A stretch of 64,000 nt of DNA, taken from the NCBI GenBank assembly GCA_951406725.2, contig OX597830.1, positions 79,360,001-79,424,000 on the forward strand, given 5' to 3'. A program made the translations under genes and the position numbers. The stretch's first letter is position 1. The number at the start of each line of letters is the position of its first letter. The notes under the pieces are model-generated. The model was given only the letters and a program-made list of their open reading frames with translations, was not told the DNA's origin and did no database searches. The stretch comes from Octopus vulgaris (taxonomy: Eukaryota). Below are positions 1,444 to 17,300 of the stretch, in pieces.

Positions 1444-2220
1444 TATATATATATATATATATATATATATATATATACATACATATATACATGAGGAGTA
1501 TAGTTCACTGGTAATCTAAATGAATAGGTACACTTAACTACTATAATTGGTCATCTGTTAGGTTTTAAGTTCACAGTTAAGGCTGGAGCTAGGGATCAGT
1601 ATTAAGGTTCTGTGTTAGCAGGTATATATTGAAGGAAAAGGACAATAAAAAATCAAGGCAGGACAACTATCTCAAGTCATTTATAATAATTTAATTAGAG
1701 TAAGGTGAATTTAAAGTCTTACAGCTGTTTCTAAGATATCCCAAGTGATAAGCTAGCATGTTTGTACACTGGGTACTCCCTTAAGGCGAGTATGTATGAA
1801 AGTTCTAGGCAGGAAAATTCACAGTTCATAAGGAATAAAAATAGAGGAATAAAGAGTAGAAGTAGATAGAAGAATACAGATAGGAGAAAGAAATTGAACA
1901 CATCATTTAAAATACTGCCAAAATACTGCCTGGATCTACCTGGGATCATACCTAAGGGACTATTCAATCCCAGAAGTATGGACCAACCTCCATACCTTCT
2001 GGGAAAAAAATGAACTGTGAACTTTTTTCTTTGATACACACCAATATGAAAAATAATTGCCAGTTTACAAAAGAATGAAAATGTATGTAAATATATTCAC
2101 AAAAGACGTAAAATGTTGTTGCCATACAAATCCATTGGCAAAATCATGAATTTATTGAATACAATTTTTACAAACAGATATCAATAAAAATTTAAAAAAA
2201 AACATTAAAAGAACAATTAC

Positions 2221-2302
2221 CTTTGCAGTTTTCTCACATCCTACAAAGTTTACTGTACCGAATGCATCACAGGGTTTTGATGGCTCCTCATCTAAAGTAT
2301 TT
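2221..2302 (-). CDS. TRPM-like MHR1 start exon (82 nt, phase 2->0): (R)[27 protein letters not shown]
   Basis: ctcttttgatag|AAAT..AAG|gtaatt; PxDAFGxxxFxG...K(A)K is the segment that precedes YVR at the start of TRPM MHR1. Confidence 0.88.
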
Positions 2303-14300: not shown

Positions 14301-17300
14301 TCATTGACACCTGTGTGCCATTGGAAAAGTCAGCAAATTGGGTCAATGAGTTCCTCATAAACTTTCCAAATGTTAAACCCAAACCAAATTATAACAAAGG
14401 AGATCTACTATGAGCAACTTGAGTGGCTTATGTTAGCACTAGAAGAAAAACGACCATCTTTGGTTTCTAGATGAAAGGTGTTCTTCCATGAGGATAATTC
14501 TCAGCTACATACAGTGGGGATAGTATTCTGAAAGCTGAACAGTTTGAATGGGAAACGATGTCCCACCCACCATTGTTCCATCTTATTATCATTTATTCCA
14601 CAGTCTTCAAAATCATTTGGACGGAAAAAATATGAATTCTGTAGATGAGGTTGGAAAAGTACTAGAGAAGTATTTTTTCATCATGGACAAATGAATTTTG
14701 GAAGAGGGATCTTACAATTCTACTAGTTAGATGGAAGAGCATTGTAGGAAATGAAGGAGAGTATATTTTAGATAAAAAAAGAACTTTGTTCATCTTAATT
14801 TTGAAAGATAAAAGAAGTATAAAAACTGCATTATTTATGGGATGACCCAATACATACACATGTGTGTATGCATGTGTGAATTTGTGTGCATGCATGCATG
14901 AGATCAATGAAATCTGTAAAATGTTTTATTCTTGGAGAAGGAAATAATGTTTTGAATACAATTCAGTTTGATATTTAATTTCATATATATATATATATAT
15001 ATATATATATATATATAAATATATATTTGTATGTGTGTGTGGGTGAAACTAAAAATCTAAATTTAATTTACTTTGAAAATTTGCAGTTTTACTTTGATTA
15101 AAACAGCAATGAGTTTTTAACTGACATTCCATTGATTGTTTTAGACTTCTCTTCTCAGCGTAACAAAAGACAAAGGAGTCCATAAAATTTTTACAGCATC
15201 CACACATCTGAACTTCAAATTGTAAAGATAATTTATTTCTCTCCATCAACTCGTTTTCAGTAAAAAGAAGTTCATTGTGAGTAGGACGGAGGTCAGATTA
15301 GTTGAAAGCCCCCCCCCCCTCCACACACTCACACAAATAATTTATTATCAATTTTATTTATTGACAATAACTGTCTACGTAGAAACAAACTTTGCCAACT
15401 CCAGAAAGAGCAACTGTGGAATCACTTGAATTCATGAGCGAATTTATCCTGCTCCAACCTGTGCCCATGCCAATGAGATTCAACAAAAGCACATTAGTAG
15501 CAACACTAACACTCTCCGTAATTATAATGTTACTATCAGTCCGAATATGCTTGATGCACATTTGAACTGGGAAACAAGCTACTAACTGCATTTTGTCATG
15601 CAGCGCCACCTACCTAGACTGTGAGATGCTAGCATTTTGGAGTAGTTATCTCCTCTTTGGTCACAGATACTAAGCAGATGATGCTATGAACTGATACTCT
15701 TACACTTTTCCAGTCACCATACAGTGACTGGTAGGGCTATACAGCATTTTCAATTATTAACAGTCCCCAAACCAATTTTGCTATTAATACAAATATTTCA
15801 TTACTGTTATTTTGCAAACATAGGATGGTATGTTTTTTCCTTTTCAGGATTTCAGTTAGTTACAACCATTTGCTAATTTTAAAATAAAAAAAACAAGCCC
15901 TATGTAGTGGAGTTTATCACAGAAAGCACACAAGCACACCTTATTAAATGGATTTTATTATTAATTTCAAAATGGAAAAGATGTGGTGAATTGTCATGCA
16001 TGAAATTGTCAGTGCTGAACTGTCATGTGAAGAATTGTTGGGTGCCATTGAAAATACTAGTTGGTCTAGTACTATAAACAGTATACATCCATACTAAAAT
16101 AAAAACTATTACTCTTGTTATAAAACATGAAAGCCTGCTGTAAATATATGAAATATAGTTGTTATATCTACCAATAAGAAATAGCATAGACAGTTCTATC
16201 TATTGGAAAATAGTAGATGGTTCTACCAGGCTTGTTCTACCTGTGTAAAATTAGTAGCCTGTTGTACCAATGTGCGAAAATATATAAAAATATTCATAAA
16301 CAGAACATACAACATTCCTTTTAGGCAAATCCATTGATGAAATTCTCAACAAACCATTTGTTACAATCTATGCAAAAAAAAAACTCATCTATAAAATATA
16401 AAATTTATAAAGAATTACTGTTCTTCTTTTCTGAGAACTTACCTTATATCCATATTTATATCCTGAATGACCAGATGAGGTAATATTCGTAAATCTGTAA
16501 AATCAGTAAATGAGAAAATTGCAGATTGGTAAAGTGAATCTGACATAAGTCTAGAGTTTCAAATTTCAGTCTTTATCTTTTAACTGGGAGTGAAGAACAG
16601 AAGAAAAGTTGTGTTTTGGCATAAGTAAGTAAGTAAGTAGGAGAGAGAGAGAGAGAGAGAGAGAGAGAGAGAGAGAGAGAGAGAGAGAGAGAGAGAGAGA
16701 GAGAGAGAGAGAGAGAGAGAGAGAGAGAGAGAGAGAGAGAGAGAGAGAGAGAGAGAGAGAGAGAGAGAGAGAGAGAGAGAGAGAGAGAGAGAGAGAGAGA
16801 GAGAGAGAGAGAGAGAGAGAGAGAGAGAGAGAGAGAGAGAGAGGTGAAAAGTAAACAAGGAATAAAGGAAACTAAGAAAATAAGACAGAAATTAGAAAAA
16901 GGAAATTTCTCAAAGAAAGGCAAATAGAAACATGTTGAAAATTGTTAGAGAAGCTAAAAAGATGGAGAAATCTCTATGTAACAGAGGCAAGTAACAAAGA
17001 ATAGGAATCATATGTTAAAAATAGATCTATTCACAGATATATTAGGTTGTCTCACATGAAATATTGTATTTTAACTGGATTTCTTATGAGTCACCTATAA
17101 ATGGATTTTTAATGAGTTTCTATGTACATGCTTGTGTTAACTCTTACTCTTTTTCTTTCTAGACAATACTATTATTCAAAATTGCTACCCACAGCTCTTA
17201 TGACAACGTTGACAACAGAATAATACCAAGTAATTTTCTTGTATGAATACAAGTTGGGTCACTCTACCACCGAAGCTCTACAAAATATCAAGTGCACTTT

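Follow-up and report, generated by a model that had tools for sequence, protein, structure and literature searches.

Small linker exons of an octopus TRPM2-like gene probably arose from a duplicated parental exon pair through splice-site change

Introduction

Tandem exon duplication and phase-symmetric exon shuffling are known processes by which genes gain exons. Small exons can also change length at a splice site, and plant microexons extended by an alternative splice site have been described (excerpted text of PMC8831610). Among TRPM channels, each member is reported to carry one MHR1-4 set, and loss of the Cys region is noted in some other lineages (accessible part of PMC13143021). Residues C53, C65, C67 and H74 of the zebrafish protein are the TRPM zinc ligands (accessible part of PMC9112350). 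Surveys count two TRPMs in O. vulgaris (PMC13402157 Table 1; PMC12919962), and the octopus has been reported as poor in TRP genes (bioRxiv 2024.05.23.594666, in the portion available).

Here we analyse a 64,000-nt stretch of Octopus vulgaris DNA (the window). It holds part of a TRPM2-like gene on the minus strand in which the N-terminal MHR1-3 module is tandemly repeated. Between two modules lies an array of small linker exons, X and Y. We conclude, with a probability of roughly 0.8, that these exons come from a duplicated pair of adjacent exons, P1 and P2, of a parent TRPM gene and shrank via splice-site change.

Results

Exon organization of the window

Every feature described for the window lies on the minus strand. 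Boundaries and reading frame define a linker of 11 small exons in (X-Y)5-X order, encoding an acidic stretch of 146 residues and preceding the DAFG exon (D) of module A; module B is the module upstream, and Z denotes another exon type derived from P1. The 15 window exons splice in frame into 897 nt with 0 stops.

62415..62503, minus: module B exon with a weak donor, 89 nt, phase 0>2, running from the last part of MHR1/2 into MHR3 (tblastn of P0001, boundaries, frame)
55330..55520, minus: module B MHR3 exon, 191 nt, phase 2>1 (tblastn of P0001, frame)
52694..52788, minus: final module B MHR3 exon, 95 nt, phase 1>0, at the module junction (joined to X in O. bimaculoides models P0002/P0005)
46782..46813, minus: X exon 1, 32 nt, phase 0>2 (boundaries, frame)
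46740..46781, minus: X exon 1 fossil, 36 nt that once were coding (26/36 identity with the end of the parent exon, old Cys codon included) plus dead donor ATAAGT (parent alignment)
42564..42606, minus: Y1, 43 nt, phase 2>0, donor in D register (profile; present in P0001)
36674..36705, minus: X exon 2, 32 nt (fossil 23/36 plus dead donor at 36673-36632)
35067..35106, minus: Y2, 40 nt, donor in D register (profile, exon-end comparison)
29587..29618, minus: X exon 3, 32 nt (fossil 25/36 plus dead donor at 29586-29545)
21330..21357, minus: Y3, 28 nt (sister of Y_C, a Y of another module, support 99/98)
20027..20058, minus: X exon 4, 32 nt (fossil 22/36 plus dead donor at 20026-19985)
16443..16494, minus: Y4, 52 nt, terminates at the new donor (gene models; contig coverage of ~52 nt in 3/4 runs)
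16413..16442, minus: Y4 remnant, 24 nt of former exon end plus ancestral donor GTAATT (donor-register alignment)
12858..12889, minus: X exon 5, 32 nt (fossil eroded by deletion, 14/36, not significant)
9214..9289, minus: Y5, 76 nt, terminates at the new donor (gene models, contig coverage)
9184..9213, minus: Y5 remnant, 24 nt, in-frame TAA immediately before ancestral donor GTAATT (parent comparison)
8152..8192, minus: X exon 6, 41 nt, 5' part at full parent length (fossil not alignable, 10/36)
2221..2302, minus: D (DAFG) of module A, 82 nt, phase 2>0, without the CxC...H half of the parent 145-nt exon
2041..2220, minus: intron segment following D, with a homologous counterpart downstream of each Y (signal weaker on to ~1900)

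The linker exons are small rather than microexons in the strict sense. None of the 11 is ≤27 nt and one is ≤30 nt, against available definitions of 3-27 or 3-30 nt; nine are within the wider cut-off of 51 nt. All 11 have lengths that are not multiples of three, and X+Y pairs alone are frame-neutral.

The SLOG/LSDAT (MHR1/2) domain is N-terminal, with PF18139 matching P0001 in two stretches (E 1e-119) and P0002 (E 2.5e-61), and SLOG exon matches lie directly downstream of the window. MHR3/4 and the pore region (PF25508 and PF00520 in P0001) also lie downstream, their exons placed by tblastn; a genome-wide PF00520 search gave none on C17 among the matches listed (150 of 279 candidates scored). 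Eight octopus models contain two or three SLOG core motifs and up to four DAFG motifs, more than one MHR1-4 set per chain would give, and at least 28 first-SLOG-exon matches, which mark module starts, lie on contigs C17 and C60. O. bimaculoides and O. sinensis annotations, which treat the upstream modules as separate proteins without a channel, speak against a single chain. The four-module model of O. bimaculoides, however, stops at the exon just before 62503-62415 and the next-numbered model begins just after it; this exon is in frame and intact in the O. vulgaris window, which favours one giant multi-module channel. A 39-nt alternative exon of O. bimaculoides was sought in the window and not found.

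Splicing of the linker

O. bimaculoides RefSeq models have Y4 and Y5 ends identical to those of the window; in the same comparison identity is 94/136 across the linker and 192/230 for D+SLOG. Contig coverage in runs presumed to be RNA, from two studies, equals the short Y4 and Y5 exon lengths. Depth at Y5 is absent in one of four runs, one upper-bin value is discordant (37.8 nt vs 25), and splice junctions are not listed in these runs. Gene models put all X and Y exons in series, and a single depth figure fits Y4, X12 (the X at 12858..) and Y5. Mutually exclusive use of Y and D in the genes at 42.9 and 43.0 Mb was considered and dropped because gene models place Z exons between them.

X exons derive from the first exon of a parental pair

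A single-module TRPM2-like parent gene lies on C17 at ~44.33-44.39 Mb; a cuttlefish and two further octopuses have orthologs of it. Both the Cys3-His zinc clamp and the MHR1/2 DAFG strand are encoded by two neighbouring exons of this gene, P1 (77 nt, phase 0>2) and P2 (145 nt, phase 2>0). This pair begins and finishes in phase 0, so it could be duplicated in tandem without a frame shift. A duplicated unit made of a 0>2 exon and a DAFG-type 2>0 exon agrees with the first-pass annotation, which had named X plus the DAFG exon.

The origin of X, which that annotation did not consider, is the clearest donor birth at the locus and a cleaner case of the mechanism proposed there for Y. Downstream of their donors, 8 of 11 X copies match the last 36 coding nt of the parent exon without gaps (19-26/36, p≤0.002), and ATAAGT is kept exactly at +37 in 6 of 11, four of these six within the window. 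No significant fossil was found against the parent exon end for X12 or X8 (the X at 8152..). Orthologs from O. sinensis, O. bimaculoides and the cuttlefish have the segment cut from X as coding sequence, which sets the polarity of the change. As the alignments show, X is P1 shortened by 36 nt through a new GT donor, the old donor persisting as a dead ATAAGT. That P1 also gave rise to Z exons, which retain the old donor, is well supported. Single-module genes at 42.9 and 43.0 Mb carry Z exons together with long Y exons (88-103 nt).

Loss of the zinc site

The segment cut from X aligns to zebrafish C53/C65/C67/H74. All four zinc-site ligands are removed by the shortening of X together with the absence of the 5' region from D. 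CxC was absent from 6/6 derived octopus proteins checked, which do not retain the Cys3-His site, and present in the parent orthologs and in TRPMs of other animals, except for one entry where the search landed on the wrong motif. NUDT9-H (PF25969) is absent from the precomputed domain lists of the parent and derived octopus proteins and present in TRPM2-labelled matches.

Y exons share their 3' side with D

D and Y1-Y5 (82; 43, 40, 28, 52 and 76 nt) are all in phase 2>0, confirming by boundaries and frame the common phase noted at first pass. The first 320 nt of the intron downstream of D align to the introns that follow each of the five Y exons in the window (z 5.5-11.1, every score exceeding the full set of 300 dinucleotide shuffles), and to none of five X introns (z up to 1.8). 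The resemblance of the two sets of introns, which the first-pass annotation would have given up had no alignment proved significant, is thereby upheld. The lowest Y alignment score, 62, was reached by 0 of 2000 AT-matched real intron windows cleaned of D and Y introns (background maximum 51). The signal is strong at +1..180 (0-5/1000 shuffles) and weaker at +181..330 (3/5 Y under 1%). GGATCTACC occurs three times in the window, after D, Y5 and Y3, and CAAATCCATTG twice, after D and Y4. A Y intron profile scores 19-57 bits on 10/10 D copies (shuffle maximum 4.1 in 700) and a D intron profile 9-51 bits on 12/12 Y copies (shuffle maximum 3.1 in 700), the D donor being profile position 1 in several D copies. 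BLASTN of D against 264 kb recovered no Y; detecting the homology needs pairwise scoring or profiles.

On the acceptor side, pairwise comparison of Y with D gave 0/5 (z up to 1.3), the Y-upstream profile exceeded the shuffle maximum in 0/10 D copies and the D-upstream profile in 1/12 Y copies (unanchored, 7.8 bits). The parental P2 flanks gave no match to any of the four D/Y flank profiles, and the first coding exon of the parent had no Y or D flank-profile match. Birth of the D acceptor inside the parent exon at a Trp codon is plausible by eye; a profile signal was absent and we do not claim it.

The three 24-mers singled out at first pass, at the end of D and after the Y4 and Y5 donors, were found in place, each followed by GTAATT. 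The remnants match the D end at 14/24 for Y4 (p 0.004) and 13/24 for Y5 (p 0.013), single-test values among 60 comparisons, and match the parent exon end at 14 and 15/24, as well as or better than window D. The parent, Y4, Y5 and Y_far share a CAG AAA exon-end trace that keeps its register relative to the donor (14-15/24, p≤0.002). By this register, the Y4 and Y5 donors lie 24 nt upstream of the ancestral donor, and the support of 71/88 suggests a single birth shared by both. The first-pass claim of a donor born 24 nt upstream holds for these two exons; it is less certain for Y1-Y3, where no 24-nt remnant was found and the donors are in D-donor register.

Phylogeny and alternative origins of Y

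In the tree, six module D copies form a clade (100/99) separate from the Y copies and the outlying D_42; support for Y monophyly is 76/80 in this unrooted tree. The main tree was built without the parent, whose flanks could not be aligned, without Y42, which has a truncated flank and was retained in a Y-only tree, and without the near-duplicates nD, D_A2 and D_C2. Separation of the Y and D lineages predates the radiation of the modules, and Y did not branch from window D.

This bears directly on the first-pass account, in which Y exons are local copies of window D and mutation of GTAGGA to GTAAGT made the new donor. The common phase, the intron homology and the remnant matches to window D all fit it, and descent from a DAFG exon stands for the 3' end, donor and following intron of Y; window D as the source does not, a Y4+Y5+window D clade being rejected at p-AU ~1e-40. 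Y1-Y5 as a single clade is rejected too (p-AU 0.006), and the window D intron is nearer to other module D subtypes (62-73% identity) than to Y1-Y5 (48-56%). The hexamer step fails because the ancestral -24 hexamer was GGAT[AT]T. Of 11 D-type exons, just two carry GTAGGA at -24, and these belong to the module-A subtype; in the two most outlying D copies it is at -27. The GTAGGA/GTAAGT match is an artefact of register, produced by the loss of one codon in the subtype of window D alone. Local copying is thus refuted unless gene conversion replaced just the last 24 nt, which leaves it the least probable account. Hardly better placed is independent insertion of a dispersed repeat after non-homologous D and Y exons. 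Although the shared segment has internal repeats (secondary profile matches) and the introns are rich in mobile DNA, the alignment begins at the donor GT itself, 40/40 scored genome matches are on C17 or C60, the contigs bearing these genes, and the exon end is in register; we regard this reading as unlikely.

Two other accounts deserve more weight, neither reaching even odds. Y exons may be chimeras or newly exonised DNA, in which a partial duplication of D supplied just the donor and the intron that follows, while unrelated sequence supplied the acceptor and the bulk of the exon. Acceptor-side homology is absent in every test, the one DNA search for the source of the Y acceptor elsewhere in the genome, made with the Y-upstream segment, found Y loci alone (8/8), and whole-exon alignments of seven Y with five D-type exons are at chance level (3/35 at p<0.05). 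One Z exon has a D-like upstream segment (E 9e-9), so flank swapping occurs in the octopus TRPM family. Against a chimeric origin, the acceptor is in phase 2 in 12/12 Y, the long Y exons of the outlying genes are of D-like size, and the parent exon's 5' part is missing from D too, so that the new upstream flank may be that of D. Somewhat more doubtful, though conceivable, is that a single donor arising at -24 truncated the ancestor from which every GTAAGT-type Y exon descends and that Y1-Y3, nY and Y_C later lost the remnant by deletion between the near-repeats GTAAGT and GTAATT. The post-donor sequence of Y1, Y3, nY and Y_C indeed reads as GTAAGT fused to the sequence after the old Y4 donor, the nY end matches Y43b at 11/18 in the -24 register, and the required clades are not rejected (p-AU 0.39). 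However, Y_far carries +5G at the ancestral donor, which explains GTAAG without deletion; in the ancestral register the Y2 end agrees with the parent at 12/24 (p 0.019), and the summed scores are higher for that register in 4/5, by small margins.

Discussion

Under descent from the parental pair, an octopus-lineage daughter family would have duplicated P1+P2 repeatedly, and likewise the whole MHR1-3 module. P2 would have become D by losing its 5' CxC/His part, a loss visible at the protein level, and, once and early, would have founded the Y lineage, which inherited at least the P2/D 3' end, the donor and ~180 nt of intron. Y would then have shortened from 88-103 nt to its present 28-76 nt through changes that kept the frame, the Y4/Y5 donor birth at -24 among them. 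Spliced in frame, the X/Y array would form the acidic spacer from module B MHR3 to module A MHR1/2. The spacer is probably disordered, and the product is likely a TRPM channel whose several cytosolic MHR1-3 modules have no zinc clamp. At about even odds, the spacer lets the extra modules hang outside the ring of the tetramer core and canonical ADP-ribose gating is lost or altered.

More tentatively, and at just short of even odds, the locus may encode one giant octopus-specific TRPM with four or five tandem MHR1-3 sensor modules before a single pore, belonging to a multi-locus family missed by current TRP surveys; splice-site shifts would have removed its zinc clamp, the relic exon pair would serve as a spacer tunable in length by skipping or adding X+Y, and the whole would be a new cephalopod sensory-channel architecture.

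The locus preserves a rare complete series from conserved domain exon to small linker exon. Parent, long intermediates, shortened copies and dead donor share one chromosome, so each splice-site change can be tested in minigenes. A splice-site mutation here deletes a metal ligand that human TRPM2 gating requires (accessible part of PMC9112350). The data also suggest that octopus TRPMs with ligand-binding modules in tandem have undergone a large expansion, which bears on the sensing of chemicals, temperature or damage. We found no published description of the cluster or its exons; supplements (e.g. Table S1 of PMC13143021 and PMC13402157) may list some of the proteins.

Compared with TRPM2 and non-vertebrate TRPM-beta-type channels, the best structural relatives of the parent are PDB 6CO7 and zebrafish TRPM2. 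The octopus proteins share with that class the SLOG/LSDAT MHR1/2, the TRPM2-like and ion-transport Pfam domains and the DAFG strand, and the parent retains Cys3-His. They differ in their tandem MHR1-3 modules (2-4 DAFG motifs per model) and small-exon linkers, in the lack of the zinc ligands from every derived module inspected, and in having no NUDT9-H in those precomputed lists. Lineage-specific clusters of TRPM paralogs resemble the local expansions of molluscan TRPMs (bioRxiv 2024.05.23.594666), whose accessible part does not mention multi-module chains or this cluster. As in tandem exon duplication (accessible part of PMC9741552), the octopus copies neighbour each other in one gene and phase symmetry keeps the frame; here, though, the unit is a pair of exons whose lengths are not multiples of three, and models show a serial spacer instead of mutually exclusive copies. 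As in the plant microexon splice-site shift (excerpted text of PMC8831610), the boundary moves by a multiple of three, but the octopus genome holds parent, intermediates, shortened copies and dead donor together, and the shift removes a metal ligand. The splicing mechanisms are already known; what is new is the readable record and the channel architecture.

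Locus and exon array

The gene lies on the minus strand, with PF18139 (SLOG in TRPM) matches in exons just beyond the window's low end. Three exons closing the upstream MHR1-3 module (module B) are followed by X-Y1-X-Y2-X-Y3-X-Y4-X-Y5-X and then by D, the DAFG exon of module A. The exons singled out below are:

46813, minus strand: X exon followed by a 26/36 match to the lost exon segment
12858..12889, minus strand: X12, an X exon
8152..8192, minus strand: X8, an X exon
2302-2221, minus strand: D
62503-62415, minus strand: exon at a gene-model break in other species

All X exons are 32 or 41 nt long with phases 0>2, and every Y exon and D has phases 2>0; X and Y are small exons that fall outside the strict 27-30 nt definition of microexons. 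In-frame joining of the 15 window exons gave 897 nt with no stop codon. The X/Y run encodes 146 residues (37 acidic, 15 basic). The stretch from Y1 to D, as delimited here, is present in P0001, an Octopus vulgaris protein labelled TRPM-like 2, and the orthologous run is carried by O. bimaculoides RefSeq models; database entries for these proteins are TRPM-like or uncharacterised models.

DNA matches of D numbered 30, every one on contigs C17 or C60, and by our own count first-SLOG exons on these contigs make up 28 of 84 PF18139 matches. Models of three octopus species contain 2-4 DAFG motifs per chain. Multi-module clusters repeat on C17 (G000:C17) at 67.3-69.5, 44.5-44.7, 56.9 and 79.3-80.0 Mb and on C60, on both strands and in recurring module order; some are near-identical (93-99%), reflecting either recent segmental duplication or a partly uncollapsed assembly. 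The Y donor region appears deleted or altered at L031 (67.76 Mb), L097 (79.62 Mb) and L093 (69.20 Mb), and judged from these copies some paralogous arrays may be decaying. P0128, a 1786-residue protein labelled Sanderia malayensis (a jellyfish by its label), has two SLOG modules and retains the Cys cluster in the first; this is a module duplication independent of, and outside, octopuses.

Other sequences were noted in the window. A 631-nt inverted duplication (44470-45099 and 45939-46569; 99.4% identical, 840 nt apart) sits within the intron that follows the first X, leaving the exon itself outside; in the pre-mRNA its two arms could pair as a long RNA duplex. The segment 55625-55780 is intronic and conserved between modules; its exon call in the automatic model P0001 is probably an annotation error. 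Repeated element fragments (one pair 75-78% identical) and a degenerate tandem array at 31-862, 6646-7715 and 55895-57345 have the appearance of mobile DNA and of a minisatellite.

Homology and donor positions of Y and D

The first-pass annotation had proposed that Y exons are degenerate copies of D, shortened by birth of a new donor. The 24-nt sequences that it quoted proved exact in a sequence check. The post-D intron aligned with the post-Y intron for all five window Y exons (z 5.5-11.1) and with none of five X introns; none of 2000 cleaned real-intron controls reached the lowest Y score. The Y introns therefore align significantly beyond controls, as the proposal needed. In reciprocal family-profile searches, 10/10 D and 12/12 Y scored higher than 700 shuffles. 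The alignment starts at the donor, and neither pairwise nor profile tests detected Y-D homology on the acceptor side.

With the donor register measured relative to D, Y1, Y2, Y3 and Y exons from other modules splice at the same position as D. As proposed, the D-equivalent site of Y4 and Y5 is a downstream GTAATT, and the donor in use lies 24 nt upstream. Use of this upstream donor is supported by exon ends in gene models of two species, by an in-frame stop within the Y5 remnant and by contig coverage in runs guessed to be RNA, none of which listed a splice junction: 51.9-52.2 nt for Y4 in 3/4 runs and about 52+25 nt for Y5 in two runs, with a third discordant. An intron bin (8283-8773) had no coverage in 4/4 of the runs guessed to be RNA.

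Source of the Y exons

The mutation named in the proposal, GTAGGA to GTAAGT, did not hold up: GTAGGA occurs at -24 in only 2 of 11 D exons, both of module A, where D is one codon short. Outlying D copies have GGATAT at -24 and GTAGGA at -27, and the hexamer at -24 is GGATTT in the parent, a single-module TRPM2-like gene on C17 (about 44.33-44.39 Mb). The Y4 and Y5 remnants match the parent exon end at 14/24 and 15/24 positions, equal to or better than their match to D; the match runs through CAG AAA at -15, also kept in Y_far, an unshifted Y (15/24).

In the tree, the six module D copies form one clade (support 100/99), and Y copies group apart from it, together with D_42, an outlying functional D. 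Derivation from the window's own D is contradicted, a Y4+Y5+window D grouping being rejected at p-AU about 1e-40. A Y4-Y5 sister pair has modest support (71/88). Y3 is sister to a Y exon from a different module (99/98), and the data reject Y1-Y5 as a single clade (p-AU 0.006). The Y lineage is early in origin and probably arose once (76/80); given the topology and p-AU tests, the window array was built from already diverged Y types. Y1-Y3 may also have gone through a stage with the donor at -24 and later deleted the remnant. The original observation was confirmed in part and its interpretation supported in part: the family of mechanism holds, with the source exon and mutation discarded and X as the best example. 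The youngest array duplication comprises X units 29195-30578 and 36250-37660 (88% identical over 1.4 kb), whose following Y exons are not close.

X as the clearest donor shift

Proteins of O. sinensis and O. bimaculoides match the parent gene at 91-95%, and a cuttlefish carries an ortholog. X derives from the parent's exon P1 (77 nt). A new GT ends X 36 nt short of the P1 end, and the segment cut off aligns ungapped at the intron start in 8/11 X copies (p<=0.002), with 26/36 positions identical after the X at 46813. The former donor persists as ATAAGT at +37 in 6/11 copies; in X12 and X8 the trace of the 36 nt is gone. Z exons, a second class present both in the genes at 42.9 and 43.0 Mb and in module B, keep the old donor, and their profile matches parent P1 (E 2e-6). 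X, not Y, is the clearer case of donor birth. At L082 (43.01 Mb; about 3580-3860), a Z exon combines D-like upstream sequence (E 9e-9) with a P1-type donor; this exon is close to the Z exon of module B (L025) and exemplifies flank swapping among linker exons.

Loss of the zinc site and the predicted protein

D derives from P2 (145 nt), the next exon of the parent, without the CxC...H half of P2. Of the four ligands, the first Cys falls in the segment removed from X and the remaining three in the part missing from D; all 6 derived proteins checked lack CxC. The parent ligands align to zebrafish C53, C65, C67 and H74. In the accessible part of PMC9112350 these correspond to Zn ligands, and mutating the ligands in human TRPM2 eliminates its ADP-ribose currents. 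For the predicted channel, the odds that canonical gating by ADP-ribose was lost are put at about even.

P1+P2 form a cassette running from phase 0 to phase 0, so that tandem copies keep the frame. Copies released from the zinc site most likely drifted, shortened by steps of three and were retained as a spacer. Spacer identity with O. bimaculoides is 94/136 residues versus 192/230 for the domain; this suggests selection acting on frame and composition more strongly than on sequence.

The product is probably a channel that carries several MHR1-3 modules. In O. bimaculoides, the last exon of the four-module model is the one preceding 62503-62415, and the model with the next number starts just after 62503-62415. 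This suggests a single gene divided by annotation; the two parts may also be transcribed separately. The donor of exon 62503-62415, where annotations of other species split the locus, is weak (TCG|GTTTGT); alternative termination may occur here and would yield channel-less multi-module proteins. In O. bimaculoides, P0003 and P0005 include an alternative exon of 13 residues following the first X, which the P0002 isoforms lack; no counterpart was found in the window.

Comparison with published work

In the accessible parts of these sources, O. vulgaris is assigned one alpha and one beta TRPM (PMC13402157 Table 1, with the words 'tandem' and 'exon' absent) or two TRPMs (PMC12919962), and octopus has the lowest TRP number (bioRxiv 2024.05.23.594666). 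PMC13143021, within the same limits, describes a single MHR set in each member and Cys-region loss in some lineages; in the accessible part of PMC8831610, plant microexons are extended through an alternative splice site. A literature search covering main texts, mostly outside subscription journals, found nothing on this TRPM cluster. Exon duplication, splice-site shift and TRPM genes are already known kinds, and the case here is a variant of them.
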